The position numbers and the translations under genes are program-made. From contig CADCCF010000006.1 of the NCBI GenBank assembly GCA_902799835.1, positions 25,803-89,802 of the forward strand: a stretch of DNA of 64,000 nucleotides. The letters run 5' to 3'. Positions 10,875-60,678 of this stretch are shown here, in pieces (positions within the stretch are counted from its first letter, which is position 1; each line of letters starts with the position of its first letter). The DNA is from an uncultured Pseudomonadota bacterium (lineage in GTDB: Bacteria; Pseudomonadota; Alphaproteobacteria; RF32; CAG-239). The notes beneath the pieces were generated by a model. That model made no database searches, was not told the DNA's origin, and worked only from the letters and a program-made list of their open reading frames with translations.

Positions 10875-10993
10875 TGTTAAATATCCTTGTGTTATGTTGC
10901 AAAATTAAATTGAACCTGTTACTAATATATTTAATATAAGCATAAGTTTGTAATATTTGCAATTTTTTTATTTGAAAAGTTTGGATTGATTTT

Positions 10994-11614: not shown

Positions 11615-11615
11615 T

Positions 11616-17437: not shown

Positions 17438-17465
17438 GTTGCAATAGGCCGGAAGGAATTTGCAA

Positions 17466-23014: not shown

Positions 23015-23015
23015 C

Positions 23016-35747: not shown

Positions 35748-35842
35748 AATGTATAACACCTCGTGGAAACATAACTTAACCATCAATATAAACGAGATGT
35801 TGTTGCACTTCAAGCTTCATTAAGCGGTTATGCTAAACTATT

Positions 35843-42721: not shown

Positions 42722-43441
42722 ATGGGTTACTTAAGTCAAAAAAAATATAAAGAAAGAGAAAATGTTTTTTTTGTGGTCGTTTCGATTGTAATGGCTGCTA
42801 TTGCTTTTTTGTTGTTGTTAAATCCTGAATTTACTTTCTTTAATCTTAATCTGTTTCATTTTTATTGTATTGGTTTTATAGCTTTTCTTGCTGCGGTTGT
42901 TGCCAAAAAACTTGTGCCTATTTTGGTGTTAGGTTTGTCGTTGGTAGTTATTTATGTTTTGTTGGCTATCTCAGGAAATATATTCTTTTCGGATCGAGTT
43001 AATGGCGGAGATGAAGTGGAGGTAACATTTAATAATGATTTGGAGATGCCGGCCGCTCTGTCAAAAGGGGTATTAGTTTCTGATGATAAAGTATTGGCTT
43101 CTTATGCGGTGGTTAATGAGGAAGCTCCGTTGATGGTAATAATGGTTGATTTTAGGGGGTTTGCCAAAGATAAATATAAAACGTTGCTTAAAAATCTTCG
43201 AAAATTTGTTATAAAACAAGATGTTGAAGTGGTGCTTTTGGGTAATTTCGGTATGCCAGCATGGTCAAAGCACTTTCGCAAATTTACCGAAGCTTCGGGG
43301 TTGATGGTTAAAAACAGGTTTATTTTTGATGGATTTTTTAGTGTTCCGCAGTTTTATGTGTTGGGGTATAAGGAAGTCGGGGTGAAAAGCATTACTCGAA
43401 AGGGAAATAATTGGATTGTGAAAGTTTCCTATAATCTTTGA
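42722..43441 (+). CDS. Membrane protein with a short, apparently degenerate endonuclease/exonuclease/phosphatase-like C-terminal region
   Basis: Has three N-terminal TM helices. VVLLGNFGMPAWSKHF resembles the GDFN..pWS block of membrane EEP proteins, with the Asp replaced. Confidence 0.4.
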   Translation: MGYLSQKKYKERENVFFVVVSIVMAAIAFLLLLNPEFTFFNLNLFHFYCIGFIAFLAAVVAKKLVPILVLGLSLVVIYVLLAISGNIFFSDRVNGGDEVEVTFNNDLEMPAALSKGVLVSDDKVLASYAVVNEEAPLMVIMVDFRGFAKDKYKTLLKNLRKFVIKQDVEVVLLGNFGMPAWSKHFRKFTEASGLMVKNRFIFDGFFSVPQFYVLGYKEVGVKSITRKGNNWIVKVSYNL

Positions 43442-44518: not shown

Positions 44519-44609
44519 ACGAATCGAGTTTCTTTACTTTAAATTAGTTTTTGATTGGTTATGATTGGATGATAATGGAAAAGAAATTTATTGTATAGGG
44601 GTTTTTATT

Positions 44610-47045
44610 ATGACGATAACAAAATTGAAACCGAGTCAACTTTACAAAAAATGTGATCCGCAGAAATTTTCGTTTGCCTCAACGGCAGAGTTGGAAGAGA
44701 GATTGTCATCATTGGGACAAGACAGAGCTTTGGCTGCGGTTGAGCTTGGGGTTAACATTAAATCTAAAGGTTATAACCTTTTTTGCCTTGGGCCTGAGGG
44801 AACCGGCAAAAGCTCGTTGGTAAAAAGGGTTTTAGCTCAAGAAGCCAAAAATCGCAAGACTCCGGATGACTGGGCCTATGTTTATAATTTTGAAGAGCCA
44901 TATAAACCTATTGCAGTTTCTTTTCCGGCCGGAACAGCGGTGGATTTTGCTAAAGATATTGATAAATTGATTGAGAGTTTATCTGCTTCGATTTCGGCAA
45001 TTTTTGAAAGTGATGAGTATAATGCCGGTGTTAATATTATTAAGGAAAAGTTCAAGCAGTCTAAAGAAAAATATATAAAAATGCTACAAAAAAAGGCAAA
45101 GGGCAAGAGTGTTTCGCTTTTGCATATGCCGGTTGGATTGGTGGTTGCTCCGGTTAAAAATGGTGAGGTATTGAGTCCGGAGGCTTTTGATAGTCTGCCC
45201 GAGGAAGAAAAAAAGCAACTGATTGAAGATTTGAACCAAATGCAGGCAGAGATTGAGAATTCTGCACAGGATTTGCCGGCTTGGGAAGATAAACAGCGCG
45301 ATGAGATTAATAATTTGCGCACCAAGTTTTTGAAAGAAACGGTAAAAGGCCCGATTGATGAGTTACATGAAAAGTATAAGGGACACAAACAGGCAAATGA
45401 TTTCTTAAAACAGATACAAAAATATATTTTGGATAATGGTGATGAGTTTTTACCGGCAGTGGAAAATAATACGCCTGCTGAAGGAGAAGATCCTTTGACA
45501 GCATTGTTGTCAAAAATGAAACAGCCGGAAGAAGATAAATATGCCAAATTTAAGGTCAATGTTATAGTTAAAAATGAACCGGATTCCGGAGCGCCGATTA
45601 TACATTTGGATCATCCGACGCAAGGAAATTTGGTGGGTAAAGTTGAAAGAATCCAACAATATGGTGCGTTGTTGACAGACTTTACATTGATTAAGGCCGG
45701 TGCTTTGCATAAGGCTAATGGCGGGTTTTTGCTAGTTGATGCGCGCAAATTGTTGTTGCAACCTTTTGCGTGGGATTCGCTAAAGAGAGCTATAGCTTCT
45801 AAGCAAATTAAAATTGAAGCCCCCAGTGAAGAGACATCGTTTACGACTATTTCCTTGGATCCTCAGCCAATACCTTTGGATGTGAAAGTTATTTTGACCG
45901 GTGATGCTGAATTGTACGAATTGTTAAGTGATCGCGATCCGGAATTTTTGGACTTTTTTAAGGTTGAAGCTGATTTTGATATTTTGATGGATCGCACAAA
46001 AGAAAATGAAGTTGAGTATGCTAAGTTAATCGGTTCATTGTCTCAAAAGAAGCGACTGCGCTCCTTGAACAAGCAAGCAGTTGCCAAAGTTATTGAATAT
46101 GCCTCACGTATGGCGGAAAGTTCGGAAAAGTTGACCGCACATGTGGCTTCGATTGGCGATTTGTTGCGCGAGGCTGATTATTGGGCTCGTAAATCAAAAT
46201 CAAATCATATTGGTAAAAATCATATTGATCAGGCGATAAATGCTAAATTGTATCGCAATGGTCGCATCAAGGAGATGATGTTAGAGCAGATTGATAAGGG
46301 GACAATTCTGATTGATATAAAGGGAGCCAAGGTCGGACAAATTAATGGTCTGGTCGTTTATAATTTCTCGCGTTTCAGTTTTGGAAAACCGGCAAGAATC
46401 ACGGCTCAGGTTCGTATCGGTAAGGGCGAATTTGTTAATATTGAGCGCGAAGTAGAAATGAGCGGCCCGATACATTCTAAAGGCGTGCTGATTTTAGAGA
46501 GTTTGTTGGCAAATAGATTTGCCAAGTTCTGTCCTTTGTCATTGAATGCAGCGATTGTTTTTGAACAATCATATGGTGGAGTTGACGGAGATAGCGCTTC
46601 TTCAACAGAATACTATTGTTTGGTTTCAGCGATTACGGGAATTCCAATTAAGCAAAATATTGCCGTTACCGGTTCTATTAATCAATTTGGTGAAATTCAA
46701 CCGATTGGTGGCGTAAATGAAAAAATAGAAGGTTTCTTTGATGTTTGCGAACATCAGGGGCTGGACGGTACACACGGAGTTATTATTCCGCGAACCAATG
46801 TGGCAGATTTAATGCTGCGCGAAGATGTAGTACAAGCTGTCGAGGACGGAAAGTTCAATGTTTATGCTGTTGATACGGTTGATGACGGTATAGAGATTTT
46901 GACAGGAATTAAGGCTGGAGCTATGAACAAACATGGAGTATATCCAAAGAAATCTGTCAATTATGAAGTACAGCAAAGCTTAGAGCATTTTTACAAGTGT
47001 TATGCCAAGTATGCCCGTGAAACGAAAGGTTGTTTGGGAAAATAG
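44610..47045 (+). CDS. Lon-like protease (AAA-type module with a large helical insertion plus an S16 Lon proteolytic domain; LonB/LonC-like)
   Basis: Has Walker A GPEGTGKS, a coiled insertion of about 200 aa, GGFLLVDARK in the Walker B position, and the protease block GGVDGDSASSTEY. I prefer the start at 44610 (MTITKLKP), which is preceded by AGGGG. Confidence 0.85.
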   Translation: MTITKLKPSQLYKKCDPQKFSFASTAELEERLSSLGQDRALAAVELGVNIKSKGYNLFCLGPEGTGKSSLVKRVLAQEAKNRKTPDDWAYVYNFEEPYKPIAVSFPAGTAVDFAKDIDKLIESLSASISAIFESDEYNAGVNIIKEKFKQSKEKYIKMLQKKAKGKSVSLLHMPVGLVVAPVKNGEVLSPEAFDSLPEEEKKQLIEDLNQMQAEIENSAQDLPAWEDKQRDEINNLRTKFLKETVKGPIDELHEKYKGHKQANDFLKQIQKYILDNGDEFLPAVENNTPAEGEDPLTALLSKMKQPEEDKYAKFKVNVIVKNEPDSGAPIIHLDHPTQGNLVGKVERIQQYGALLTDFTLIKAGALHKANGGFLLVDARKLLLQPFAWDSLKRAIASKQIKIEAPSEETSFTTISLDPQPIPLDVKVILTGDAELYELLSDRDPEFLDFFKVEADFDILMDRTKENEVEYAKLIGSLSQKKRLRSLNKQAVAKVIEYASRMAESSEKLTAHVASIGDLLREADYWARKSKSNHIGKNHIDQAINAKLYRNGRIKEMMLEQIDKGTILIDIKGAKVGQINGLVVYNFSRFSFGKPARITAQVRIGKGEFVNIEREVEMSGPIHSKGVLILESLLANRFAKFCPLSLNAAIVFEQSYGGVDGDSASSTEYYCLVSAITGIPIKQNIAVTGSINQFGEIQPIGGVNEKIEGFFDVCEHQGLDGTHGVIIPRTNVADLMLREDVVQAVEDGKFNVYAVDTVDDGIEILTGIKAGAMNKHGVYPKKSVNYEVQQSLEHFYKCYAKYARETKGCLGK

Positions 47046-48211: not shown

Positions 48212-49366
48212 ATGCTTGATGTTATAGTAGCAGAAGAACATGAGAATATTAAGATGGTGGCCGGTTTAAACAAGGGACGGTTGTTGGAGTTGGTTGTCCA
48301 TGATGCAGCAAAAGCCAATGAAGGTGATGTTTATTTGGGTAAGATAGTTAAAAAAATAAGCACAGCTAATGGAAAAAACAGCTACTTTGTTAACATTGGT
48401 AAAAGGGACGTTTTTATTAATGCCCATGAAAATGAGTTGGAAGATTTGGATGCTCATGAAGGGCAGGATATAGTTTTACAAATTGCTCAAGAAGCTCGAG
48501 CTGAAAAAAATGCCAGGGGGTTGCGTTTTTTGCAATTAGCCGGCGATAATATAGTCTTTTGTCCTTATGGTAATGGTGTTAATATATCAAGCAAAATCGA
48601 AAATGAAGAGCTACGAAATAATTTAAGTGAGTTAGTTAGCAAAAATTTGTCGGAAGATGACGGAGGATGGATTGTACGTACACACGCGGCAGAAGTTGCC
48701 GGTGATGAAATAATATCTGAAATGAGTGAATTGCGTCAAGTGTTTGCTGATATTATGGTAAAGGCAAAAGCCGGCAAATCACCGGAGTGTTTGTATTCTA
48801 GAGATAACAGTTTGTCTGATATGATAAGTCGCAATATGTCGACGCTATGCAAGATTGTTGTTAATAACCATAATGTTGAGAATGAATTTGCGGATACGGG
48901 AATTGTTGAGTATAATGCAGATGCTTTTAGCGAATATGGGATTGATGAACAGATAGGTGATGCACTGCAAAAAGAGGTAAAGCTGAAATGTGGTGGTCGC
49001 ATCTTTATTGAAGAAACCAAAGCGTTAACGGCAATTGATGTTGATAGCGGAGGATGTTCCGGACAAGGGGGAATCAATAGGCTAAATAACGAGGCGGCTG
49101 AAGAAATTGCCAAACAGATTATTTTACGCAATTTGTCAGGAAAAATAGTTATTGATTTTGCAGGATTTACAGAATTCAAATTCTTAAAAGATGCTTTGGA
49201 TATTTTGGAACAGGGATTGCAGGATGATGTGGCAAAATCACGAGTTTTGGGCGTAACTAAGGCCGGTAATGTCGAAATATTGCGAAGCCGTCGCAGACCA
49301 TCACTAAGCGATATATTTATGAAAGAATGTGAAGTTTGTCAGGGAACGGGAAGAGTTGAAAAATGA
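48212..49366 (+). CDS. Short Rne/Rng-family ribonuclease
   Basis: Has an S1-like [13 protein letters not shown]...YFVNIG, plus [10 protein letters not shown] and [28 protein letters not shown]. It shows maf-rng-yacG synteny. Confidence 0.85.
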
Positions 49367-49557
49367 AATGTCCCATTTGCAAAAAAGAAATTGAAGATAT
49401 GAAATATCGCCCCTTTTGTTCTAAAAGATGTGCTGATATTGATTTGGGTAACTGGTTTAACGAGAAGTATTCTTTCGTTGCACAAGAGGTTGACGAAGAA
49501 GATTTGGCGCAATTAGCCAATCTTGCAGAGAACGAAAAAGAAGAACAAGATTCGTAG
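49363..49557 (+). CDS. yacG: DNA gyrase inhibitor YacG (zinc ribbon)
   Basis: Carries [30 protein letters not shown] and an acidic tail. Confidence 0.9.
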
Positions 49558-49561
49558 TTCT

Positions 49562-51814
49562 TTATTGCGCTTCGGCATTTTCAGCGTTATCTGCGGCAGT
49601 TTCATTATCGTTGTTTTCAAACTCGGCGTACTCGCTCTCGTCAGCATTGGGATCATAATCGATACCGAGTTTGGCCAACATATCGTCATTGATGTCATCG
49701 CGACGAGCCACAATCCAATCAGGAACATTCGGACAAGGAGGAATCTTGGCCAAAGCTTTCATCTTAGGATCAAGATACCAACGAGGAGCATCAGCCATAA
49801 TCGGGCGGTCGATAGAACCTTGCATCAAAACTACTTGTTTTAGCATGGGTAAACTCAAAAGCTGAGTGGCAGAAATCGCCGATACGCCTTGGAGTTGATA
49901 GCTTACGTTTTTAGCAAAAGGATTGTTTCCCTTAAACGAGATGCCTTCATTTTTGGAATAAGATGAGGTTTGAACAGTTTTGTTACCAATCATTTTAGAG
50001 AAACGCTGAGCAGTTTGCTCGTTGTTTTGTGATAAAATGACTTTGCAAGCTGTGGTAGAAATAACGGTTTCAAGGTCATCTTTTCCGTATTTACCGGAGA
50101 TTTGTCCTAAATCTTGTCCGATCAGAAGATATGATACTTTTTGACCACGTCCAACCGCCGGTCCGTCAATTACGGCTTTAAGTTTAGGCATAGTTGGAAA
50201 CTCGTCGAGCACAAACAAGGCTGAGTATGGTCCCATTTTGCCGTCGGTGGGATTGACAAAGTTAGGCGGATTGGCAATCAGATATGACGACATAAGGTCG
50301 ATAAAAATACCGGATATAACACTCAAGGCACGAGCATCAACTTGGTTAACTGACAAATATACTGAAATAGGTTTTACCTCTCCGGTAACCGGATCTTTCA
50401 TGCCGCGCAAATCCTTGAATGATAAGTCGGAAAAACTGGTGCGGGCAACCACAGCGGCGTTTTTGAAAATACCAATTCCGGCAAAAGCTGTTGACATAAC
50501 AGAACCACGCTCTTTATCAGGCATGGAGCTTAATTGGCTCAATTCTATGATGGAACGTTGCGAATAACCAAATTTACGAGCTTCTTCAATTGCTTCTTCC
50601 AACAGATCACGCATCGGATCAGCCATAGCTGCCATTTGGTCACCTTCGTCCATACGGCGTTTAATGTCTTGAGATTGTTTAATTTGCGCTTCAGTAATCC
50701 ATTCCAAAATCATGGCTATACAGGCCTCGTGGCCAATCCAACGTTCAGGAAGTAAAGCCCAAGTTCCAATCGGAACATAGTTGTCAATGGTCAGGGAATT
50801 AGTGCGCAAGTTTTGTAAGGCGCGAGCGGCTTGAGGGTCGTTCATTTCCATATAATAATCTTCCAACTTTTTCTTATCTTCTTCGTCAAGTTTGCCCTCA
50901 TAAATTTTACCGATAAAATAGTCATTAGCACGGGCTTTTTCGCACTTGCAGACGATAAAGTTAATAAAACCGGTTAAGGCGGCACGACCGGTGTTAGACC
51001 AGTGCGGATCAGCTCCGCCTTTGGGGTCTTCCACTAAAACTTTACACATGGAGTCAACATACATATCACGAGCCGGCCCCGGATCAGGAATAGCACCGGG
51101 TGATAGAGGATTCCAAGAAGGATAGTAAATTCCTTTTGAAGGATCATCTTCCATACCCCAGTTTATGATGAAAACGGGACCAACTTTGGCGCGCGCACCG
51201 GAAGTTGAAAAGCACAACTCAGGTTTGGGGTCATTAACAATGATACTAAGTTTCGGTGAATTAAAAATGGTCGGAATAACTACTCCGGCAGTTTTACCGG
51301 TACCAGGAGGCGCACAACACAAAGTGGAAAGCGTTTCTTTTAACATCAGTAATTTGCCGTTGAACTTGCCGACTACTTGGCAAAAACCATCGAATCCAAG
51401 TAAAGGCATTTTACGAATGTCTTTTTCCGTGGCAACACGTGCTGAGCCATGAACATTTGACTGAAATTTATAAGGATTCGTAATCATACCAGTAATTAAA
51501 CCTGCCGGAAGGGCAATAAATGGCAAAGTAGGTATCCACAAGCTCAAGGAAAAATTGCCATGATAGTAGAAAAGTTGTTTAGCCCAAATCCAGTAACGAT
51601 TGTAGAGAAAACCGCTGCGGTTGAATATAAGAGAAAAGAATTTTGAAATATCAGCAAAAGTTTCTTTGGAAATGCCATTACCAATCAAATAAGCTAAAGG
51701 TAATGCCGTAATGAACAATATTATGGTAATGACAACCGTTATAATCGTTGTTATACACATCCATTGAACGGCACTGTTGTATTCTTTCCATTCTTCACCC
51801 TTTTTGCTAGCCAT
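49562..51814 (-). CDS. VirD4/TraG-type type IV secretion coupling ATPase
   Basis: Has N-terminal TM helices and a Walker A context of CCAPPGTGKTAGVVIPTIFNSPKLSIIVNDPKPE. It also carries Walker B FVLDEFPTMPKL, plus GRGQKVSYLLIGQDLGQISGKYGKDDLETVISTTACKVILSQNN, and an acidic C-terminal tail. Confidence 0.85.
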   Translation of the reverse strand: MASKKGEEWKEYNSAVQWMCITTIITVVITIILFITALPLAYLIGNGISKETFADISKFFSLIFNRSGFLYNRYWIWAKQLFYYHGNFSLSLWIPTLPFIALPAGLITGMITNPYKFQSNVHGSARVATEKDIRKMPLLGFDGFCQVVGKFNGKLLMLKETLSTLCCAPPGTGKTAGVVIPTIFNSPKLSIIVNDPKPELCFSTSGARAKVGPVFIINWGMEDDPSKGIYYPSWNPLSPGAIPDPGPARDMYVDSMCKVLVEDPKGGADPHWSNTGRAALTGFINFIVCKCEKARANDYFIGKIYEGKLDEEDKKKLEDYYMEMNDPQAARALQNLRTNSLTIDNYVPIGTWALLPERWIGHEACIAMILEWITEAQIKQSQDIKRRMDEGDQMAAMADPMRDLLEEAIEEARKFGYSQRSIIELSQLSSMPDKERGSVMSTAFAGIGIFKNAAVVARTSFSDLSFKDLRGMKDPVTGEVKPISVYLSVNQVDARALSVISGIFIDLMSSYLIANPPNFVNPTDGKMGPYSALFVLDEFPTMPKLKAVIDGPAVGRGQKVSYLLIGQDLGQISGKYGKDDLETVISTTACKVILSQNNEQTAQRFSKMIGNKTVQTSSYSKNEGISFKGNNPFAKNVSYQLQGVSAISATQLLSLPMLKQVVLMQGSIDRPIMADAPRWYLDPKMKALAKIPPCPNVPDWIVARRDDINDDMLAKLGIDYDPNADESEYAEFENNDNETAADNAENAEAQ

Positions 51815-51832
51815 AACATTCCTCTTTCTATT

Positions 51833-53083
51833 TTATTCGTCGCTACGCAATAGTTTTTTTAATTTATCCAAAACGCCTTTGTCAATACCGCTGTCAGCAT
51901 CTTCTAGTTTCTTGGCAAAAAGAGGTATTTCTTTAGGCGTTCCACGATCAATACGAGTTACATTAATGTGTAAATCTTTCCATATCTCAAACATATCCTC
52001 AGCATTAATAATGTTGCCGATTTGCTCAATTACGTAAGGAATAATCTTAAATTTGAGATCGGCAGCAGCTAACTTTTCCGACAGAGCCGCTTGGGCGAGA
52101 GCTATTTTACGTACCGGAGAAATACGGTGAGAACTCTCAGAAAACCACAAAGGTTCCTCATCATTAAAACGTTCTTCATCAGCCAACCAGTCGCCGCTTT
52201 CTTTGTCATTGAGGCATAGACATAAGTGGTTTTTGGATATACCGACAAAGTCGATGAATACATCATTAAGAGTTACGCCGGAAATAATTTCATAACCTTT
52301 TTGTTTGAGCATTTCAAAGGTTGAGTTAGAATGATAGGTCTTATTCTTGGTGTCAGGAGCTGTAATATCAGCTCTTTTCTTTTTGGCGGAAGAAGTTGAT
52401 CTGTCATTTTTATGGTCACCTTCGGATTCCGATTGAGGAGTGGAAAGAGATAGAGAAGGTTTGGTTTCGGCCTTTTTGTCATCAAACAAATCAAAGTCAA
52501 AATTATCATCATCGCTAAGCTCAAACAGAGAGTGAGAAAATTCTTTGGAAGCCGGTTTGGCAGCAGGTCTAGCGGTGGTTGTTGATATAGGTTGAGGTTT
52601 ATAGGGAACTCCCATAAGCTGAGCACGTCGTTCAGGAGATAAATTGGGAGTGCTGGCAGCCATGCGGGCTTGCGGGGTTGTTGGACGTGTCTCTTTTGTG
52701 ATAGTTTTTTTCTTAATAACTTTAGTTTGAACGGAGGGAGCCATAAGTTTACGTAAAGGTAAAACAAATATTTTTCTCACTAGTTCAACTAGAAAATTCC
52801 AAATATTACTAAACAAATTTTCCCAGTTGATAATGCTCAAAGCAGCCCAAACAGTTGCCCAAGCAGGAATAGCCGTTAGAATAATAATGATAAAAGCCCA
52901 TTCTTTGGTTTCGTCAATAATCCAGCCTGAACGCCATAGATTCCATGCGTGAGTCCAGTGGGAGGTGCGAAAAATATCAAAATGCCAATTGGTTAAAAGA
53001 ATAACACGTATGCCTTCAATGAAAAGCACACTCCATATGATTCCAACTAAAGTTATTCTTAATAACACCAGAATAGGCCTCAA
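51833..53083 (-). CDS. Membrane protein with an N-terminal Trp-rich TM module, a Pro/Thr/Ser-rich linker and a C-terminal globular domain (possibly NERD/restriction-endonuclease-like)
   Basis: The N-terminus is paralogous to the 158-aa neighbour. The C-terminal pattern is GYEIISGVTLNDVFIDFVGISKNHLCLCLNDKESGDW...RISPVRKIALAQAAL. Confidence 0.55.
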   Translation of the reverse strand: MRPILVLLRITLVGIIWSVLFIEGIRVILLTNWHFDIFRTSHWTHAWNLWRSGWIIDETKEWAFIIIILTAIPAWATVWAALSIINWENLFSNIWNFLVELVRKIFVLPLRKLMAPSVQTKVIKKKTITKETRPTTPQARMAASTPNLSPERRAQLMGVPYKPQPISTTTARPAAKPASKEFSHSLFELSDDDNFDFDLFDDKKAETKPSLSLSTPQSESEGDHKNDRSTSSAKKKRADITAPDTKNKTYHSNSTFEMLKQKGYEIISGVTLNDVFIDFVGISKNHLCLCLNDKESGDWLADEERFNDEEPLWFSESSHRISPVRKIALAQAALSEKLAAADLKFKIIPYVIEQIGNIINAEDMFEIWKDLHINVTRIDRGTPKEIPLFAKKLEDADSGIDKGVLDKLKKLLRSDE

Positions 53084-53145
53084 ACCTCTTACTCCAACAA
53101 TTTTATTTCAGTATAACCGGAATTAGTTAACAAGAGCTTATTTTT

Positions 53146-53622
53146 TTATAAATCATTTGATATTTTTTCCTTAATGCTAGATCTGATACCTTGAGAGCTT
53201 TGCGCTTTTTTAGGCTTTAAGGATTCCAATTGTCCTCTTATTTCTTCAACCTTTTGTTCATTTGATTTGGTATAACGTATAGAAATTCTGTCAGTATTGC
53301 CGGATGAGCGGTTAAATAGGTTATATATAAACTTAAAGGGTGAGAATATAAGTTGTAAATATTTCGCCTTGAGGGCCCGACGCAAACCAATCAACCATAA
53401 AATGGGCAAGGCAAATAATCCCACAAACAAGAGAACATCAGAGGCTGATTTGATAATTCCGCCATTTTCCCAATATTGTTCCATGACACGCCAAGATGAC
53501 GATGACATAAAGTCAAAATTCCAAATCACAACAAACAATAAGTTGGTCAGGTAGATAAAGACATAAGTCCAACCAACTAATATGATTAAGCCGCGTAGCA
53601 AGCGAAAGATTTTTTTAATCAT
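53146..53622 (-). CDS. Small membrane protein sharing the Trp-rich TM module
   Basis: Carries W-x3-FI-x10-W-FD-x6-W-x6-W-x2-G-x-II, with spacing conserved relative to the 416-aa protein. Its start overlaps the upstream stop (ATGA). Confidence 0.5.
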   Translation of the reverse strand: MIKKIFRLLRGLIILVGWTYVFIYLTNLLFVVIWNFDFMSSSSWRVMEQYWENGGIIKSASDVLLFVGLFALPILWLIGLRRALKAKYLQLIFSPFKFIYNLFNRSSGNTDRISIRYTKSNEQKVEEIRGQLESLKPKKAQSSQGIRSSIKEKISNDL

Positions 53623-55760
53623 TTTTGTTGTCCTTGAGACTGGCCACTTCGAGATGCGGGGCGCTTTCCTTGGGGCGTAGAGCGTTGAACAATTTGTTTG
53701 ATAGCGTCATCACTTGGGATGCCATGATTTTCTTTGAATTGCTCACGAGCAGCTTTGAAAGCGGTATACTCTTCTTTGTATTTATCATCATATTTGCGCT
53801 TGCTGAATTGGTCATATAAATCAGCAAGTTTATTTTTATCAGCAGCATACACATGATCAATCTTTTCCATATATTTTGCCATATACTCTACTTGTTCCTG
53901 CTTGAATTGAGCGAGTTGGTCTTTGTCAGGCATGTAATAAGACAAGGAGTTTTTTGTTAGTGTATTTTTTTCGACATCTAGTTCCACTAGCACTTTGTTA
54001 TATCCGGCTAAAGTTGTAAAACCTTCGGAATCTTGAGATAACATACCAATAGCACACATGGCTTGCATAGTTTCATGTTCTAAAGGTTCCCATAATACTT
54101 CATTCTTTTTAATTGAAGTTGTTATCTTGTTAGAAGGAGCCCTGCTGTCAGACTGGGACTGTCGTCGGTCAGCACTGCCGTCTTCGTTACCTCTGCCCAT
54201 AAGTTTATTAATGCGTTCTATTAGTTTTCTATATTTCTGTTGTGACTGAGGGTCTCCAATGGTTGCAAGCTCAGCTGTTAGTTTTTCTTTATCTTTACGA
54301 AGCGCCGATGTAGCATTATTATCAGCTACCGCAGCATCTTTCAAGTTAAGTTGTTCTTCTTTTTTTGCCTGAGATTGCTCGAACTGTTCTTTGATGACAT
54401 CTTTGACGGGTTTGCCATCAATGGTTTGCTGACGCATAGCACTGGCCACATCTATCAAAGTTTCATTAGATGGTAAATCTTTACCAGAGATACGAGCTTT
54501 TTGAATTTGCATGAACATAGCATAAGCTTTGATATATTCTTTTATTTTTAGTTTTCCAAGAGAACCGCTAAAGCGTTTTTTGCCGAATTTCCATTTTTTA
54601 ACATTTTTGAATAACAAAGGATCGCTTTTGGCTTTGCGTTCGATTAGGAACTGCGAATAATGTTCAGCAAATAATTGGGCTTGTTTGTTGAGCAAGAGGA
54701 TTTTTAAATTATCCTGCAATTCTGCGTTTACTTGATTATAGGAAGCACGAGCGTTATCAAAAGCTTTGTCAAACTCACGATTGGGTTTGGCAATAGCTTG
54801 TCCGCTGGCTTTTTGTTCATAATAACTGCGTAGTTCAGCCATTTTTTGCGTATCATTAGCATCAATATCCAGAGCTCTTTGCATACTTACTAAGTGGATG
54901 TCGTCAGCTTTTTTTCTGATGCTGTTGTAGTCGGCTTTAGAAATATGATAATGGCTGAGATTTTGAGGAGGAGTTCGGTGGTCAACCAATCGACCATTTT
55001 CATCCATGGTGATATTACGATTACCAATGTCTTGGCGGAGTATAGCTAAGCCAGCTTTATTTGAGTCTGAAATGTTTTCAATGTCATTATTTAGTTCTTT
55101 AACTGCAGCAGTATGATCAGCGCGGAGGTCATCCAGATTGTCGTGATCAGGGTTGATGTGTTTGTTATAAACACCGGACATACCTTCAGTGACCTTGCGT
55201 CTGGTCCAGCGCCAAGTCTTTTTTAGGCCATGTCCGAGAGGACGAGCTGTTTCATAGACAGCGGCTCCGATGATACTGCCTGTTTCGTTAAGACACCAAG
55301 CTAAGCCTTCCAAAATCCAGTCCTTGAACAAGTATTCAATAATGTCACCGGTTTCCAGTTTGATTTTGTCAGTTTGGTAGTCACCGGAAGTAGTAGGATC
55401 TTTTTCTGGATCACCGAGTTCAGCATTCTTATCTTTGGGACTATCGGGTGGGAGAGGGGTTCCGGCTACGTCATCAACAGTTATAGGTTCTTCTCCGCCT
55501 GAGCCCTCTTTGCTTTCATCACTAACCTCAACAGGTTTTTCATCAGTATGCTCATCAACTATAGTTTCAGGGCGATCAGCAAGAATATCCTTCAACTGCT
55601 TTTGGCGATATTCTGCAAATCTTTCTTCGGTTATTGTGTTACGCAATTCAGCTCGTTCAGCTAAACGATCACGACCATCATGGTTTCCATCTAACCCTAA
55701 ATTAGCACGAGCTAGTCTTTTGAGTTCTATTTTGTAGGCAATATCTTCTTTTATTGACAT
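53619..55760 (-). CDS. Large hypothetical, mostly helical/coiled protein
   Basis: I prefer the start at ATG 55760, with AAGGAG 6 nt upstream. The track start is 55781. It has no Walker, relaxase or other catalytic motif that I recognise. Confidence 0.55.
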   Translation of the reverse strand: MSIKEDIAYKIELKRLARANLGLDGNHDGRDRLAERAELRNTITEERFAEYRQKQLKDILADRPETIVDEHTDEKPVEVSDESKEGSGGEEPITVDDVAGTPLPPDSPKDKNAELGDPEKDPTTSGDYQTDKIKLETGDIIEYLFKDWILEGLAWCLNETGSIIGAAVYETARPLGHGLKKTWRWTRRKVTEGMSGVYNKHINPDHDNLDDLRADHTAAVKELNNDIENISDSNKAGLAILRQDIGNRNITMDENGRLVDHRTPPQNLSHYHISKADYNSIRKKADDIHLVSMQRALDIDANDTQKMAELRSYYEQKASGQAIAKPNREFDKAFDNARASYNQVNAELQDNLKILLLNKQAQLFAEHYSQFLIERKAKSDPLLFKNVKKWKFGKKRFSGSLGKLKIKEYIKAYAMFMQIQKARISGKDLPSNETLIDVASAMRQQTIDGKPVKDVIKEQFEQSQAKKEEQLNLKDAAVADNNATSALRKDKEKLTAELATIGDPQSQQKYRKLIERINKLMGRGNEDGSADRRQSQSDSRAPSNKITTSIKKNEVLWEPLEHETMQAMCAIGMLSQDSEGFTTLAGYNKVLVELDVEKNTLTKNSLSYYMPDKDQLAQFKQEQVEYMAKYMEKIDHVYAADKNKLADLYDQFSKRKYDDKYKEEYTAFKAAREQFKENHGIPSDDAIKQIVQRSTPQGKRPASRSGQSQGQQK

Positions 55761-55846
55761 CGGTCGCTCCTTGGATTGCATTATCTTTAGATTTATTTCA
55801 TTATATCAATATTTTTGTTTTTTGTCCAGTGTTTTTTTGTCAAAAT

Positions 55847-56818
55847 TTAAGCTTTTAGGCCAGCTAAAAATTTGCCAAGCTTTTTGTTAACAGCTTTACC
55901 ATCTTCCGGCCCGGCTTTGATTAAGCCGAAGAGACGATCAGGTATTTTGTCTATTTGAATGGGAGCATAAGTTGCCGGATTTTTGGTTAGGATTTCAAAA
56001 GCTCCTTGCGGATCTTTACTGGCTGTTTTGAAAAAGTTGTTGATTAACAAGTCGGCATCAATTGGAAAATTGTGCTCGCGAACGGCTTTGGCATATAAGC
56101 GCTTTCTTTCGAGCGTGCGTTGATGTTGTTCATAAAGCTCTTTTTCGATTTTGTGTTTTTGGTATTTTACTTTGCGGATGTTGTAGGCGGTTTCGCACGC
56201 ATCAGTTTCAATCAAAGTTTCAACGTAAGAAATTAACGATAATTGCAAATTTGGAGCGGAAATTTTTTCAGCAAAATCCAAAATTTGTTCATCACTAGCG
56301 TTGTAGGGAAGTTTAGCTAAAATTGCAGCTTCATTTTGTAGCAAAACATCCCAACAAATGGCAATGTCATTTTTGAGGTTTTCAGTACGGTTGGGGCTGA
56401 AACGCGGAAGTAATTCTTCGGCGGAAAAAGAAAATTCGGGAATATCTGCCTGATGTTCTCTGGCGCAGTTAACAACTGATTTGATAAATTCGCAATAAAC
56501 GTTGTACAAACGCTTTTCTTCTTCAGCTAATTGGTATGAGGCATCACTTTCCAAATCAGCATAAATTTTACTAAGTTCGGTATCTTCTTCATATATGGGC
56601 ATTAATTCTTCTTCTGATGAATCGTGAGATTCATCAGGAGCAGCATCTATTTCAGAAGGCGTGTCATCCTCAGGGGTTAAGGAAGGTTTGTTTTCGGCGA
56701 TTTCATCTTCGTCCTCTTCCTGAAAATCTGCTAATATATCATCAGTTTCATTCAACTGTTTGTTGATGAATTCGTCGAGCAGAGCATCAAAATCTTTGGA
56801 AGAAAAATCATCAGGCAT
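55847..56818 (-). CDS. Hypothetical protein with a strongly acidic N-terminal third
   Basis: 323-aa ORF with AAGGAG 8 nt upstream of the ATG. It has no TM helix and no recognised motif. Confidence 0.55.
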   Translation of the reverse strand: MPDDFSSKDFDALLDEFINKQLNETDDILADFQEEDEDEIAENKPSLTPEDDTPSEIDAAPDESHDSSEEELMPIYEEDTELSKIYADLESDASYQLAEEEKRLYNVYCEFIKSVVNCAREHQADIPEFSFSAEELLPRFSPNRTENLKNDIAICWDVLLQNEAAILAKLPYNASDEQILDFAEKISAPNLQLSLISYVETLIETDACETAYNIRKVKYQKHKIEKELYEQHQRTLERKRLYAKAVREHNFPIDADLLINNFFKTASKDPQGAFEILTKNPATYAPIQIDKIPDRLFGLIKAGPEDGKAVNKKLGKFLAGLKA

Positions 56819-56830
56819 TGTATAAGCTCC

Positions 56831-57115
56831 TTAATTAAGGTTAATGACAGCAATGACGGAATAATCAGCAGTGCTGACAGATATAATACGATCATTTTTT
56901 CGTTCATCGCTTATTAACAAATGAATGGCGCCATCAGAGGTTTTTATGTCTGCTATGCGGCTGTTTTTGGGTTGGCCTAAATTAAGTGTAATTGCTTCAG
57001 CAGGTTTGGTGCGCTTTGTTTTTTTGTATATGGTCACACCAGCCAAAATCATACCGAAAATAATGGTTAAAGTAAGAAAAAATACCAGAGCTTTAACTAA
57101 TTTTAGCTTATCCAT
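56831..57115 (-). CDS. Small single-pass membrane protein
   Basis: I place the start at ATG 57115 (MDKLKLVK), after AGAGAGG. It has a TM helix (ALVFFLTLTIIFGMILAGVTIY) and then a short beta-rich ectodomain. Confidence 0.5.
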   Translation of the reverse strand: MDKLKLVKALVFFLTLTIIFGMILAGVTIYKKTKRTKPAEAITLNLGQPKNSRIADIKTSDGAIHLLISDERKNDRIISVSTADYSVIAVINLN

Positions 57116-57150
57116 AAAAAACCTCTCTTGCAAGTTTGCAATTTTGTTCT

Positions 57151-57179
57151 ATTATATGATGCAATATTAACATAAACAA
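57151..57179 (-). promoter_or_regulatory. Candidate promoter of the six-gene minus-strand operon (TTGTTT, 17-nt spacer, TATAAT)
   Basis: Read on the reverse strand. The -35 is at 57174-57179 and the -10 at 57151-57156. It overlaps a divergent TTGCAA, 16-nt spacer, TATTAT candidate for rluD. Confidence 0.45.
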
Positions 57180-57193
57180 CAAAAAAACAACTT

Positions 57194-58171
57194 ATGCATC
57201 AGTCAGAAGATAATTATATTACACCAATAGTTAATAAAGATTTTAAGGGTTTGAGAATTGACAAGTTCTTGAATGAGTGTTTTGCAGATATTTCAAGATC
57301 GCAAGCTCAAAAACTGATTGAAGCCGGTCGCGTGCTTTGCGATGATGTAACCATAGCCGATAATGCTTACAAAATAAAGGAAGGTGAGGCGTTTACAGTG
57401 TCATTGCCGGATCCGATTGAAGCAGTGCCGCAACCGGAAGAAATTGATTTAGATATAGTATATCAGGACGAAGATATTGTGGTTGTGAACAAGCCGGCTG
57501 GAATGGTTGTACATCCGGCAGCCGGCGCGTGGAGTGGAACTTTGGTTAATGCTTTGTTGTTTTGGTGTAGAGATTTGTCAGGAGTGGGCGGGGTAATACG
57601 CCCGGGAATTGTGCATCGTATTGATAAAGAAACTTCAGGTTTGTTAGTGGTTGCTAAAAATGACAATGCCCATAGGTTGTTATGTGAGCAATTTGCCGAA
57701 CACTCTATTGAGCGGACCTATTATGCTTTTTGTTTTGGTGTGCCTGATCCTTTGAATGGTGTAATTGAAGGAGATATAGGACGAAATCCTTATGATCGCA
57801 AAAAAATGGCTATAGTCAAGAATAATGGTAAAAGGGCAGTGACTCACTACCAGACAATTGAAAATTATGGCGGATGGGCAGCGAAAGTTAAATGTAATTT
57901 GGAAACCGGTCGGACACATCAAATCAGAGTGCATATGTCCTCTAAAGGTAATAATCTTATTGGCGATAAGGTTTATGTGAAAACGAAAAAAATCACCGAT
58001 AAAAAAGTTGATGATGAAATAAAAAAATATATTAACGAATTTCCGCGGCAAGCATTGCACGCTCAAAGTCTGGGTTTTATTCATCCGAGGAGCGGTGAAA
58101 GAATGCTGTTCGAAAGTGAGCTGCCGCAAGATTTGCAATTGTTGCATGAAACACTGCAAAAATTAAAATAA
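57194..58171 (+). CDS. rluD: 23S rRNA pseudouridine synthase, RluA family (RluD-like)
   Basis: Has an S4 domain (RIDKFLNECFADISRSQAQKLIEAGRV), the catalytic VHRIDKETSGLLVVAKN and GRTHQIRVH. Confidence 0.9.
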   Translation: MHQSEDNYITPIVNKDFKGLRIDKFLNECFADISRSQAQKLIEAGRVLCDDVTIADNAYKIKEGEAFTVSLPDPIEAVPQPEEIDLDIVYQDEDIVVVNKPAGMVVHPAAGAWSGTLVNALLFWCRDLSGVGGVIRPGIVHRIDKETSGLLVVAKNDNAHRLLCEQFAEHSIERTYYAFCFGVPDPLNGVIEGDIGRNPYDRKKMAIVKNNGKRAVTHYQTIENYGGWAAKVKCNLETGRTHQIRVHMSSKGNNLIGDKVYVKTKKITDKKVDDEIKKYINEFPRQALHAQSLGFIHPRSGERMLFESELPQDLQLLHETLQKLK

Positions 58172-58654
58172 TTATTCCTTTTCGTCGGGTAAAATATTGC
58201 TCCAGTTTTCGGCATATCGGTTGAGGCGGGCATTGATGATTTTTAGACGATGTTGTGCAGAATTTTTGAAGATAAAAGCAAACAAATCGGGCAAAATGTA
58301 GTATAACAAAGCGCCAATGGCTGCCGCAGAGAGCATAATGATAATGTCATTGATGTCTTCACGAATGGAAAAAGTTGAACCGGAGGTCAGTTGGATAAAA
58401 ATGTGGTGAAGGCAGATTATCAAACCAGACATATTAAGACAACCGATGGTAGTTATTTTGTTGATGTTTTTGGTATCAGTTACAACAGCGGTTAATGTTG
58501 GTAACAGACCAATGAAAAGGACTACGACAACCGGAAGTATGGTAAAAGCTACAACCATTAAGCCTAAGAAAATTATAAACTTTTGGAAAGAATTTAATTT
58601 TGATATGCCTACTTTGTTGTCTTTTTTAGAAGTTAAGGGTGTTGGTGCTTTCAT
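58172..58654 (-). CDS. Small polytopic membrane protein coupled to the pseudokinase gene
   Basis: I prefer ATG 58654, which overlaps the upstream TAA (TAATG). It has about 4 hydrophobic helices. Confidence 0.5.
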   Translation of the reverse strand: MKAPTPLTSKKDNKVGISKLNSFQKFIIFLGLMVVAFTILPVVVVLFIGLLPTLTAVVTDTKNINKITTIGCLNMSGLIICLHHIFIQLTSGSTFSIREDINDIIIMLSAAAIGALLYYILPDLFAFIFKNSAQHRLKIINARLNRYAENWSNILPDEKE

Positions 58655-60678
58655 TATTTCATCATCCAATAAATTAGGCTGAATATAAAAGTACTCAGCA
58701 TGGTTAAAACAGAAAGGATTGACGAGAAGCGCATAGCCAATTCGCGTGCTTCTTCATCAATTTTGGAATCTCCGCTCAAGATTTTATTTTTTTCAGTAAT
58801 TAAAAAGTTTACGGTTTTTAGGGCCTCGGTAAAATCATTATGGTCGCGTGTACGCGCCTCATCATTTTCGAGGATTTCGACCAAATCCATAATTTTGCCG
58901 CTTTTAGATACCTTAAGTAACTCCTGTTCCAAATATTTTTGATACTTGATATTGTGATAACTCTGAATCAATGGTTGAGCTGCTTTAGATAGCCACTGGG
59001 TAAGGTTGATAAGTTGGGCAGGTCCCTGCTTGTTTTGGATGTTGGCATATAATCTGATTACGGCGCCAATCTTGATGGCATCCTGATTGGAATTAATATC
59101 AACAATTATACCATCGATTTTTTTGCCCATTTTGCAACGCAGATAGGCAATTATGTTTTTATCAAAAGGAGGAGTGGCATAATTGTCATTATTGTTGAGA
59201 GCATTAAGCAGACGAGAGCTGTTATTGACAAATGATTTTCCCAAAAGCGGACTTAGGCAGGGTAAATCTTCGTCAAAATCATACATAATACGATCAAAAC
59301 CATAGCCATAGTCATTGCGGGAAAGATACATGGTAAACTCACTGGCATTGGTCGGAGCTCGCAAGGATGACTGTTCTTGATACCAAAGTTTTATGATATC
59401 GGTTGATATAAGATTTTGCAATGAAGTTAAAGATAAGTTATTTTTTTTATTGTAAAAAATGGTCTTAGCTATTCCTTCAGGGAAGATATAAGATGAACCG
59501 CACTTGAGAGGGAGGGAACTATCAAGATAAATGCAAATCTTTGATAATAAAATGCTTTTATCGGGGTTTTCTTTTTCAGCGTTTATGGCAGCCTGAAGTT
59601 TGGAATGGAGTTTTTCATTTTCAAGTCCGCTTTTTACCCATTCTAGCAATTTACCACTTTGGACTACTTCCAGACCAAAATCCGGATTGTTGAGAATAGC
59701 CAAGGCTGCACTTTTGCGTGTGTAACATTTTTCGCTGTTAATAACCAGTGCCTTATTAGAACGGTCGGTATTGTCAGGATTGAAATTGACGGTTTTACCA
59801 TCAAAGTAGTTAAAAACGGTATTGTAATCACAATGTTTATCGCTACTATCATCAAGCATTTGTTTGAGTACAGCGGCTATGCGAGTTGAAATCTTTTCGT
59901 TGTTGGAAAGAAAATTAAAAGATGAATTTTTTAATTTTTGTTTGAGCATTTCACCGGCAGACAGTTCCGATGATATATCGTGATTGAGTACTAATCCGAG
60001 TAAAACCACACCGGAGGCGTAAATATCGTGTTCAATTAGTCCGTTGCCGCGTGATTGGGATGGGCACAAAGTGTTTTCAATGGTTTCGTAAATCAAAGGT
60101 TGATGGGTGGAAGGGAAAGCCGCTAGGCAATCGCCCAACATCAATTCTTTGCGCGATGTATCGGTATAAAATAAGTTATCAAGTCTGATAGCACGGTGAG
60201 TTAATCCAAAAGTTTTTAATACTTCACAGGCAGACAATAGTGATAAGGTTAAACTGCGGAATTCTTCCATAGTCAAACCATCGCTTTTTTCAAGGAAATT
60301 GTCGGCGCGAGGACCACTCGGCATATTGTAAACTAAGGCGATAGTTTCAGAGTTTTTATATATGATATGACCATACTCAACCAATTTAAGGATATACGGA
60401 GAATCGATTGATTTCATATAGGGAAGATAAGATAGACGCGGTAAATCGGATGTGCACACGAGCGCGAAAAGCGGTCTGGTTGGATTCGTTTTATCCGTAA
60501 CCTGAAAGGCTAAAGCCCCGTTGGTATCCAATTCAGACATCGGTCGGTTAAAATTAATTTCAAAACGCTCTTTTAACAGCGCGGTGGATAATGGAACATT
60601 CTCCACAATTTCCTCTGAGGTGGAAATATCAGCCGGAGCTTCCGTTTCTTGGATTTCTTCAATATTCTCATCTGTCAT
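58654..60678 (-). CDS. Protein-kinase-fold protein predicted to be catalytically dead, with a large C-terminal extension and a C-terminal TM anchor
   Basis: The catalytic-loop region reads THRAIRLDN where HRDLKPxN is expected, so the Asp is replaced by Ala. It retains MLGDCLAAF (the DFG-equivalent Asp) and HDIYASGVVLLGLVL. There is no recognisable Gly-loop or VAIK lysine. The last 25 residues are hydrophobic. Confidence 0.65.
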   Translation of the reverse strand: MTDENIEEIQETEAPADISTSEEIVENVPLSTALLKERFEINFNRPMSELDTNGALAFQVTDKTNPTRPLFALVCTSDLPRLSYLPYMKSIDSPYILKLVEYGHIIYKNSETIALVYNMPSGPRADNFLEKSDGLTMEEFRSLTLSLLSACEVLKTFGLTHRAIRLDNLFYTDTSRKELMLGDCLAAFPSTHQPLIYETIENTLCPSQSRGNGLIEHDIYASGVVLLGLVLNHDISSELSAGEMLKQKLKNSSFNFLSNNEKISTRIAAVLKQMLDDSSDKHCDYNTVFNYFDGKTVNFNPDNTDRSNKALVINSEKCYTRKSAALAILNNPDFGLEVVQSGKLLEWVKSGLENEKLHSKLQAAINAEKENPDKSILLSKICIYLDSSLPLKCGSSYIFPEGIAKTIFYNKKNNLSLTSLQNLISTDIIKLWYQEQSSLRAPTNASEFTMYLSRNDYGYGFDRIMYDFDEDLPCLSPLLGKSFVNNSSRLLNALNNNDNYATPPFDKNIIAYLRCKMGKKIDGIIVDINSNQDAIKIGAVIRLYANIQNKQGPAQLINLTQWLSKAAQPLIQSYHNIKYQKYLEQELLKVSKSGKIMDLVEILENDEARTRDHNDFTEALKTVNFLITEKNKILSGDSKIDEEARELAMRFSSILSVLTMLSTFIFSLIYWMMK

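Follow-up and report, generated by a model that had tools for sequence, protein, structure and literature searches.

A chromosomally fixed type IV coupling ATPase without neighbouring channel genes in uncultured gut and rumen bacteria

Introduction

Coupling proteins are the gatekeepers of conjugation and effector secretion and are almost always encoded together with the channel. The 64,000-nucleotide stretch of DNA analysed here, referred to as the window (contig CADCCF010000006.1, positions 25,803 to 89,802, from an uncultured alphaproteobacterium of the RF32 group), contains a block of six minus-strand genes, designated g1 to g6, the last of which encodes a VirD4/TraG-family type IV coupling ATPase (T4CP). 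Channel genes are missing from its surroundings, which raises the question of what a coupling protein does at such a locus and with which partners. An earlier note, made from the sequence alone, had proposed a six-gene coupling complex that works for a type IV secretion system (T4SS) encoded elsewhere or, alternatively, a co-option of the ATPase into a different membrane-translocation module. In the literature, no description was found of an orphan or stand-alone T4CP of this kind, nor of type IV secretion in RF32.

Assignment and architecture of the coupling ATPase

The product of g6 scored above the gathering cut-offs of three Pfam models, T4SS-DNA_transf (E = 9e-58, 196.6 bits; cut-off 20.1), TraG-D_C (4e-22, 78.9 bits; cut-off 22) and TrwB_AAD_bind (6e-16, 58.8 bits; cut-off 20.5), in line with its earlier identification as a T4SS coupling protein. 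The three motifs singled out for that identification are present and invariant or nearly so in 83 orthologues, as is the segment LLIGQDLGQISGKYG, and the Walker A (GTGKT) and Walker B (DE) motifs are invariant in the same set. When compared with ten NCBIfam T4CP models, g6 stayed far below every cut-off (best score 133.9 bits, cut-off 250), and it belongs to none of the named subfamilies (VirD4, IncP TraG, Ti TraG, F TraD, CD1115 and MobC). A PDB sequence search with g6 alone gave no match at E up to 0.001.

Membrane regions were predicted with a Kyte-Doolittle scan, which placed two hydrophobic helices each in g4, g5 and g6 (in g6 at residues 20-38 and 90-108). The architecture of g6 thus comprises two predicted N-terminal transmembrane helices, the nucleotide-binding domain, into which an all-alpha region is inserted, and an acidic C-terminal tail, the last of which had already been pointed out in the earlier note. 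Conservation among orthologues amounts to 82-86% in the cytoplasmic domains, 57% in the membrane region and 47% in the acidic tail. The N-terminal peptide GEEW(K/E)EY (region of residues 4-18; GEEWxxY) is strongly conserved and is not found in plasmid VirD4 proteins. Judged by its sequence, g6 is best regarded as a genuine, intact T4CP outside every named subfamily.

Conservation and inheritance of the locus

Relatives were collected in a scan of one genome per species, which yielded 128 T4CP relatives, 80 of which were kept. All 80 (73-98% identity) come from metagenome-assembled genomes (MAGs) of uncultured gut or rumen bacteria, with human, roe deer, rabbit and cattle as sampled hosts; nearly all are titled Alphaproteobacteria or proteobacteria, and a few were binned under other names. 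As determined by tBLASTn and iterated hidden Markov model searches, most of these ~80 species-level loci share the gene order of the window, namely a divergent rluD followed by g1, g2, g3, g4, g5 and the T4CP gene.

The median identity to the window proteins is 78% for the T4CP, 64% for RluD, 52% for RNase G, 50% for g5, 43% for g2, 39% for g1 and 32% for g4. The T4CP is more conserved than RluD at each of 64 loci and more conserved than RNase G at each of 26. Its identity follows that of RluD (Spearman 0.73, n = 64), which argues for vertical inheritance under strong constraint. The reading frame is whole in 82 of 83 loci; the sole exception (L046; the loci of relatives carry L numbers) has an in-frame stop within a mismatch-dense stretch and looks like a sequence error. 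The T4CP gene is thus not a pseudogene in close relatives but a fixed, slowly evolving, vertically inherited chromosomal gene of the clade. The shared synteny, the housekeeping flanks, the ordinary G+C content and the vertical inheritance likewise contradict a degraded integrative and conjugative element (ICE), and none of the neighbouring genes matched known T4SS, Tra or Dot subunits in Pfam, NCBIfam and plasmid searches.

Origin of the ATPase and separation from channel genes

Among 72,556 plasmids, the T4CPs nearest to g6 are the VirD4 proteins of megaplasmids from Erythrobacter aureus, Sphingosinicella and Microvirga (34-37% identity, E ~1e-100). In E. aureus and Sphingosinicella, virD4 is the last gene of a virB2-virB11 operon, whose annotation is complete in the former and partly consists of hypothetical proteins in the latter, and the plasmids also bear replication, transfer or relaxase genes. 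Because these closest outside relatives end complete VirB2-B11 clusters, descent from a channel-coupled VirD4 would be the simplest history for the T4CP of the clade. The VirD4/TraG proteins of VirB-type (MPF-T) T4SS, including those of E. aureus and Sphingosinicella as well as A. tumefaciens VirD4 and R388 TrwB, carry the same Pfam domains as g6 and resemble it in their two N-terminal membrane helices, Walker A and B motifs, all-alpha insert and acidic tail. They differ in setting: whereas plasmid virD4 stands at the end of a virB2-virB11 operon, g6 and its relatives at ~120 loci have no VirB, relaxase or integrase gene within 10 kb, and g6 is chromosomal, syntenic, vertically inherited, more conserved than RluD and equipped with the GEEWxxY peptide.

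Pfam scans of the six block genes and ~40 other large open reading frames (ORFs) detected no T4SS, relaxase or integrase gene in the window, and a phmmer search with the proteins of the nearest plasmid T4SS detected no VirB2-B11 homologue in it. The absence of virB/tra/dot-type channel genes, relaxases and integrases from the 64 kb, which had been read from the letters before, is therefore upheld by both approaches. The T4CP is locally orphan not only here but also in the ~120 related loci, which span a G+C content of 0.29-0.58. Since VirD4 is normally encoded within the T4SS locus (PMC4027160), this constant separation of the T4CP from channel genes is unusual.

Membrane proteins g5 and g4

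In every locus of the clade, g5 lies directly upstream of the T4CP gene. It has a Trp-rich two-helix N-terminal domain, followed by a basic-to-acidic linker with a conserved FSHSLF...FDFDLF motif and a C-terminal domain that holds the nearly invariant stretch GDWLADEERFNDEEPLWFSESSHRISPVRK. Because positive charge follows helix 2, the C-terminal domain is predicted to be cytoplasmic. It looks like a restriction-endonuclease-like (NERD-like) fold, at scores below threshold: the match to Pfam NERD reached 18.6 bits (E = 0.0027; gathering cut-off 22.1), and in an AlphaFold 2 (AF2) model with a mean predicted local distance difference test (pLDDT) value of 60 (~45-88 in the C-terminal domain) the domain adopts an alpha-beta-beta-beta-alpha-beta topology, for which the top Foldseek matches were the PD-(D/E)xK nucleases Nt.BspD6I, BstEII, Cdn1 and Card1 (E = 0.009-0.2, TM-scores <0.3). 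A profile search of the PDB with g5 returned nothing meaningful. Among 11 distant family members, the only invariant residues of this domain are W299, E303, W313, S322, P323 and N360, and the lysine of the catalytic (D/E)xK motif, expected after beta-3, is not conserved, so that the domain may bind rather than cut and is possibly catalytically dead.

A profile search of 1.8 billion representatives assigned 376 clusters (at 50% identity) to the g5 family, and no homologue was present on the 72,556 plasmids. The C-terminal domain was also detected within 1500-aa TPR-[domain]-Roc-COR-TIR proteins (P0447, residues 617-760, 3e-31; P0467, residues 689-829, 5e-25) and, at the N-terminal end, in an AAA ATPase (P0509). 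From these occurrences, it is a mobile module, shared with multidomain proteins of the conflict type.

The gene g4 lies upstream of g5 in 75 loci. BLASTP aligned residues 1-73 with g5 (E = 5e-7), and its two-helix domain is, by this similarity, paralogous to the g5 N-terminal domain.

Proteins g3, g2 and g1

The slot of g3 is occupied by an ORF of 427-730 aa that ends at most 60 nt from the g4 start in 69 of 75 loci. Its mean column identity is only 13%, and yet it keeps both its slot and its translational coupling to g4 despite this fast evolution. No Pfam family matched more than one of 32 members scanned, with just three weak hits (E = 0.002-0.007). The protein is rich in charged and polar residues and carries a conserved GDIIxYL...LAxAxWA motif. 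In all 32 orthologues, the last 30 residues of its disordered C-terminal tail have a net charge of 0 to +9 (median +3), and the tail often closes with G-G-R. On these features, g3 is a candidate substrate or scaffold.

Like g3, g2 contains no hydrophobic helix in the Kyte-Doolittle scan, and both are therefore taken to be soluble. The AF2 model of g2 is all helical (mean pLDDT 83, core >=90), with a conserved FDxLLDDFI helix at the N-terminus; the N-terminal third is acidic, as the earlier note had remarked, and predicted to be disordered. The fold had only non-significant helical-bundle matches in the PDB (best E = 0.5), and searches of PDB sequences, Pfam, NCBIfam and plasmids were all negative. 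With 282 relatives, none of them named, g2 is lineage-specific.

The single-pass membrane protein g1, whose one hydrophobic helix was recovered in the scan, scored 18.3 bits against DUF6476 (gathering cut-off 24); all 26 orthologues tested match this family (best E = 5e-9). A specific link of g1 to the T4CP module is unlikely.

Extent of the conserved unit and the g7-g8 pair of relatives

In L060, L062 and L076, g3, g4, g5 and the T4CP gene occur together in another neighbourhood, without g1, g2 and rluD. In distant lineages, at 50-61% T4CP identity, only g5 and the T4CP gene stay adjacent; the five resolved contexts (Table 1) are all different and consist of housekeeping genes wherever the flank is long enough. 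The proposal of a six-gene coupling complex thus holds for the core linkage of g5 with the T4CP, but not for a uniform unit, given that g1 and g2 are separable and only g5 and the T4CP persist at a distance.

In at least 20 species-level loci, as well as in L086 and L092, the T4CP gene is directly followed by two further genes, designated g7 and g8. The g7 protein, usually ~185-205 aa long and 300-340 aa in L086 and L092, starts with an invariant MW(E/D)W motif (MWEWS) and ends in a PENYNTHxKxPxDFGG...N...L..TH..H..IH motif, in which H136, G145, N151, H161 and H165 are invariant and G144 and H158 nearly so in 19 sequences. A profile of g7 matched only the HNH motif of the pyocin AP41 DNase in the PDB (E = 0.04), and Pfam gave no relevant hit (one member to DUF5529, E = 0.035). 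The ~125-170-aa g8 protein matched, in two independent lineages and below threshold, SUKH_5 (5.5e-5 and 2.4e-4) and SMI1_KNR4 (0.0026), and weakly the PDB entry 2icg (Lin2918; E = 0.15). Going by these sub-threshold scores, g7 and g8 resemble either a toxin and the protein that confers immunity to it or a dedicated nuclease and an inhibitor of it. The Trp- and acid-rich N-terminal peptides of g6, GEEW(K/E)EY, and of g7, MW(E/D)W(S/T), are possible docking motifs.

A metagenome scan with the g7 motif alone yielded 31 loci with a G+C content of 0.29-0.58. A member of the T4CP clade (57-86% identity) lies upstream of g7 in all 26 loci with upstream DNA, and g8 comes after g7 in 29 of the 31. The ancestral cassette was probably g5-T4CP-g7-g8. 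The window contains neither gene (tBLASTn found no copy in the 64 kb), and their patchy loss among close relatives is less in keeping with an essential enzyme than with an accessory pair of toxin and immunity protein. The most informative neighbours of the T4CP gene, g7 and g8, thus occur only in relatives.

The 3' flank of the T4CP gene is a variable spot in relatives. In L037 (12643-15000), two Cys-rich proteins of 504 and 273 aa with hydrophobic, signal-peptide-like N-termini are encoded between the T4CP gene and g7, and L050 and L053 carry DNA methyltransferase genes at the corresponding position.

Possible roles of the module

The reading that we prefer, with a confidence that stays slightly short of even, is that of a type IV coupling module, fixed in the chromosome and passed on vertically, which would recruit substrates from its own operon and serve a channel whose genes lie elsewhere. 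It builds on what was observed for the family and intactness of the ATPase, the linkage, the synteny, the rates of change, the paralogy of g4 and g5 and the local absence of a channel; that the proteins form a complex, which of them are cargo, that export takes place and that there is a channel at all is inferred, and the proposal runs as follows. The g6 protein would reside in the inner membrane with g5, and in the window also with g4, held by the Trp-rich two-helix domains. This complex would recruit cytoplasmic proteins of the same operon and spend ATP on handing them to an envelope-spanning channel, whose genes would lie elsewhere in the genome. The likeliest cargo in the window would be g3, which is soluble and hypervariable and whose disordered tail, non-negative and in most cases basic, is like that of VirB/VirD4 substrates; g2 could act in the cytoplasm as an adaptor or chaperone. 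In many relatives, the HNH-like DNase candidate g7 with the SUKH-like immunity candidate g8 would join the cargo, which would point to antagonism between bacteria. Protein-secreting T4SS that lack a relaxase still need a T4CP (PMC4027160), and the rvh T4SS of the Rickettsiales, which basal, extracellular lineages possess as well, has been proposed as a means of killing other bacteria (PMC11077975). A fast-evolving, basic-tailed protein and a patchy nuclease-immunity pair are what would be expected of cargo for interbacterial antagonism.

The module resembles several known systems in part. As to the rvh T4SS with its coupling protein RvhD4, the T4CP studied here is unlinked to VirB genes and g2-g5 have no rvh counterpart; the common ground is that rvh is likewise alphaproteobacterial, chromosomal and vertically inherited (PMC11077975). 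The pairing of g5 with the T4CP can be likened to that of DotM with DotL in the coupling complex of Legionella (DotL, DotM, DotN, IcmS/W and LvgA), as a functional analogy and not as homology. In the Dot/Icm system, the T4CP gene is directly preceded by that of a two-helix inner-membrane partner (icmP/dotM, then icmO/dotL), and soluble adaptors recognise the substrates. However, g6 is of the VirD4 and not the DotL type, the cytoplasmic domain of g5 is endonuclease-like, and no Dot/Icm genes lie nearby; g5 and g2 had no Pfam or NCBIfam hit to DotM, DotN, IcmS/W or LvgA, and none of these was among the top 50 Foldseek matches, so that the fold search lends no support to g5 as a DotM-like protein. 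In the rvh locus, rvhD4 comes after rvhB8-B11.

The bacteria-killing T4SS of Xanthomonas, Stenotrophomonas and Lysobacter are similar in that a VirD4-family ATPase is linked, here in the relatives, to a candidate nuclease-immunity pair and no relaxase is involved. In the Xanthomonas type, VirD4 recognises toxin effectors that end in XVIPCD and have immunity partners, and virD4 is located beside virB. The loci studied here differ from these systems in having no linked channel genes and in the features of g7, with MWEWS at the N-terminus and an HNH-like domain at the C-terminus; moreover, the g7-g8 pair is absent from the window, and the resemblance is functional only, no homology having been found.

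Several points weigh against the coupling module with a distant channel. The T4SS elsewhere is assumed, and none was observed near the T4CP. When the VirB2-B11 proteins of the E. aureus and Sphingosinicella clusters were compared by phmmer with all stop-to-stop ORFs, no homologue was detected in the window and 89 loci around the T4CP or g5 (1.63 Mb, E up to 1e-3), and tBLASTn gave no VirB2-B11 match in 31 further metagenome loci; the absence in these ~120 loci covers up to 10 kb on each side of the match. That the T4CP is better conserved than RluD (64/64) and RNase G (26/26) is not usual for an accessory of secretion and suggests that its role in the cell is close to essential. The g5-like genes of three lineages (L084/L085, L088 and L091) have no T4CP gene next to them. 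The g7 protein always bears the same HNH-like domain, with no swapping of toxin domains; polymorphic toxins do not typically behave in this way, and a partner dedicated to DNA processing would fit too. Finally, the HNH, SUKH and NERD assignments are all below threshold.

The separation from channel genes, constant within 10 kb in ~120 loci of widely different G+C content (0.29-0.58), and the slow, vertical evolution of the T4CP (Spearman 0.73 relative to RluD; conservation above the housekeeping enzymes) would also be in keeping with a self-contained inner-membrane machine formed by the T4CP with g5 and g4, that is, a repurposed translocase that is independent of any T4SS and transports proteins or nucleic acids through or along the inner membrane, in the service of a housekeeping or nearly essential function, with the neighbours as subunits or clients. 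The same would be suggested by the distant g5-T4CP pairs, each of which stands in different surroundings, made up of housekeeping genes wherever the flank suffices, by the lack of g5 on any of the 72,556 plasmids, and by the lack of known T4SS counterparts of g5 and g2. However, T4CPs are not known to operate without a channel, a diderm cell would still need a route through the outer membrane, and the nearest outgroup T4CPs are channel-coupled. In addition, scattered T4SS genes are known from other Alphaproteobacteria, as in the rvh system (PMC11077975). We consider such a machine unlikely, though a serious second choice. Its evolutionary corollary, namely that the T4CP was domesticated together with g5 as a core, channel-independent machine in this clade and related lineages, ancestrally with the HNH-like protein and its SUKH-like inhibitor, is equally doubtful but deserves to be kept in view.

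The two nuclease-like modules that are strictly linked to the ATPase, the C-terminal domain of g5 and the HNH-like motif of g7, suggest yet another role. The T4CP could act as a DNA pump like the FtsK-HerA relatives in a membrane-anchored module that processes or translocates DNA, with the endonuclease-like g5 as a tethered partner and, in relatives, the HNH nuclease g7 held in check by g8; DNA export, DNA uptake and the interception of incoming DNA would be possible tasks. Pairings of an ATPase with a nuclease are established, as in HerA-NurA and terminase-HNH, and serve as precedents from general knowledge. The exclusive occurrence of g7 beside this T4CP clade with an unchanged domain, as for a dedicated enzyme, and the presence of the g5 domain in TPR-Roc-COR-TIR proteins typical of conflict systems would fit as well. 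Against this stand the missing (D/E)xK lysine of the g5 family, which is perhaps catalytically dead, and the dispensability of g7 and g8, which were lost from the window and many relatives while the T4CP was kept. None of the six block proteins had a PADLOC hit (E up to 0.01), which also led us to reject a known anti-phage defence system; defence systems are seldom fixed syntenic core genes, and no relaxase, oriT-like element or other DNA-transfer gene lies nearby. A role of this kind is improbable.

That the locus is what is left of an integrated conjugative or mobilisable element after decay of the other genes is highly improbable: although T4CPs usually reside on mobile elements, some mobilisable elements have a relaxase, in some cases together with a T4CP, yet lack a T4SS (PMC4027160), and the region 3' of the T4CP gene is variable in some relatives (DNA methylases, inserted genes for Cys-rich secreted proteins), a degraded ICE is ruled out by the gene order and rluD flank shared by most of the ~80 species in which the locus is fixed, by the ordinary G+C content, by the absence of element boundaries, integrase, relaxase and any nearby tRNA gene (the only one being at 19741-19817), and by a T4CP that is intact in 82 of 83 loci, more constrained than RluD and co-diverging with it.

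Two further candidates were discarded. A replacement of FtsK is ruled out, as the L089 contig, which bears a g5-T4CP pair, also has FtsK_4TM and FtsK_SpoIIIE genes. That the neighbours are divergent VirB, Trb or Dot subunits finds no support in Pfam, NCBIfam or the phmmer comparison with VirB2-B11, and g5 and g2 have no plasmid homologues.

Layout of the locus and content of the window

The six genes are co-directional at 49562-57133, with successive gaps of 12, 86, -4, 62 and 18 nt from g1 to g6 if g1 starts at the ATG at 57115, which is preceded by an AGAGAGG Shine-Dalgarno sequence, and g3 at its second ATG at 55760. With these starts, the spacings given in the earlier note are exact, and so are its sizes of 94 aa for g1 and 713 aa for g3. 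The g6 stop codon ends at 49562 and yacG at 49557.

The promoter proposed upstream of g1 is present in sequence, including its 17-nt spacer, but is a weak call, since its -35 hexamer matches at only 3/6 positions and promoter-like sites in the region are at chance level (26 versus 23.8 +/- 4.8 in shuffled sequences; consensus scan). The best match in the region, at 11/12 positions, is located in the g2-g3 gap. A second transcription start before g3 is at least as likely as a start at the upstream site, and the g2-g3 site is a possible internal start for g3-g6, noted as a lead only and consistent with the occurrence of g3-g6 without g1 and g2 in L060, L062 and L076. Scans for promoters and terminators gave nothing above chance in the region, so that the operon boundaries rest on spacing and synteny only.

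Table 1. Features of the locus in the window and related gene arrangements in other loci. Coordinates are window positions unless preceded by a locus name.
Feature	Coordinates	Strand	Description
g1	56831..57115 (56831-57133 as full ORF)	-	94-aa single-pass membrane protein, Pfam DUF6476
g2	55847..56818	-	323-aa soluble protein, predicted all-alpha
g3	53619..55760 (713 aa, second ATG) or 53619-55781 (720 aa)	-	hypervariable soluble protein
g4	53146..53622	-	158-aa membrane protein; start overlaps g3 stop by 4 nt
g5	51833..53083	-	416-aa putative inner-membrane partner, TTG start
g6	49562..51814	-	750-aa VirD4/TraG-family type IV coupling ATPase (T4CP)
Promoter candidate	57151..57179	-	TTGTTT, 17 nt, TATAAT; -35 hexamer 3/6; under scan threshold
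Sigma-70-like site	55800..55828	-	TGGACA, 17 nt, TATAAT, extended TG; g2-g3 gap; 11/12 positions, best match of the region
yacG	49363-49557		assigned by homology and Pfam labels of orthologous locus
rluD	57194-58171		assigned by homology and Pfam labels of orthologous locus
ORFs without Pfam match	33319-35813	-	adjacent 453-aa and 377-aa pair
Further ORFs without Pfam match	10023-12182, 15582-16280, 17460-18239, 32763-33317, 42722-43441		
g5-T4CP in L086/L087			adjacent; 61% T4CP and 28% g5 identity
g5-T4CP in L089			between lolA and rpmI-rplT-pheST; 54% T4CP identity
g5-T4CP in L092			adjacent; 60% T4CP identity
g5-T4CP in L093, L094			adjacent; 50-54% T4CP identity
g7-g8 pair	L004:12265-13261, L035:12643-13675, L086:3826-5110, L092:13557-15026		also in ~45 other loci

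The flanking core genes yacG and rluD, recognised before, were verified through homology and through the labels that Pfam gives at the orthologous locus L081, which also served to name DksA, Maf and RNase G of the window. Outside the block, the genes that the Pfam scans could label in the window are all housekeeping genes; among them are those for a PD-(D/E)XK nuclease-domain protein, RNase PH, a MurC-like ligase, an H+-PPase, acetate kinase, PBP1, iPGM, CtpA, RsmB, LeuRS, LptE, HolA and a LonB/LonC-like protease. The G+C content of the block is ordinary, and the sole tRNA gene lies 30 kb away from it. Nine window ORFs of 184-453 aa had no Pfam match (E up to 1e-4; 1e-3 for 42722-43441), and none of them matched the VirB2-B11 proteins of the nearest plasmid T4SS.

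Three other sets of genes were noted. At 58172-60678 (minus strand), a 674-aa protein that weakly matches protein kinases (3e-7, below threshold), has an HRAIRLDN loop instead of HRD and bears a membrane helix at the C-terminus is followed by a 165-aa multi-pass membrane protein, and this pair is kept upstream of rluD in ~40 related loci. At 21560-24432 (minus strand), adjacent genes for a VWA-domain protein, a PP2C phosphatase and a Ser/Thr protein kinase resemble a eukaryote-like signalling trio. The protease encoded at 44565-47045 (plus strand) has 826 aa with AAA_32, LonB_AAA-LID, LonC_helical and Lon_C domains; going by the Pfam domain names, this LonB/LonC type is known mainly from archaea and certain bacteria.

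Implications

The T4CP described here is fixed in the chromosome, changes more slowly than housekeeping enzymes do, has private partners for which no homologues are known and is never found beside channel genes in the loci examined. Irrespective of its role, the locus newly defines the families of g5 (376 clusters), of g2, with a confidently predicted all-alpha fold that has no PDB match, and of g7 and g8. The choice between the readings hinges on whether T4SS genes are present or absent in existing MAGs. If a T4SS is encoded elsewhere, the locus would provide adaptor, partner and substrate proteins that are new, in a gut and rumen group that is widespread though uncultured, and would also point to a probable DNase toxin-immunity pair. 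If no T4SS exists, the locus would demonstrate that a T4CP can be repurposed as an autonomous machine, and the channel-independent reading, if true, would make this the first system built on a T4CP to work without a type IV secretion channel.

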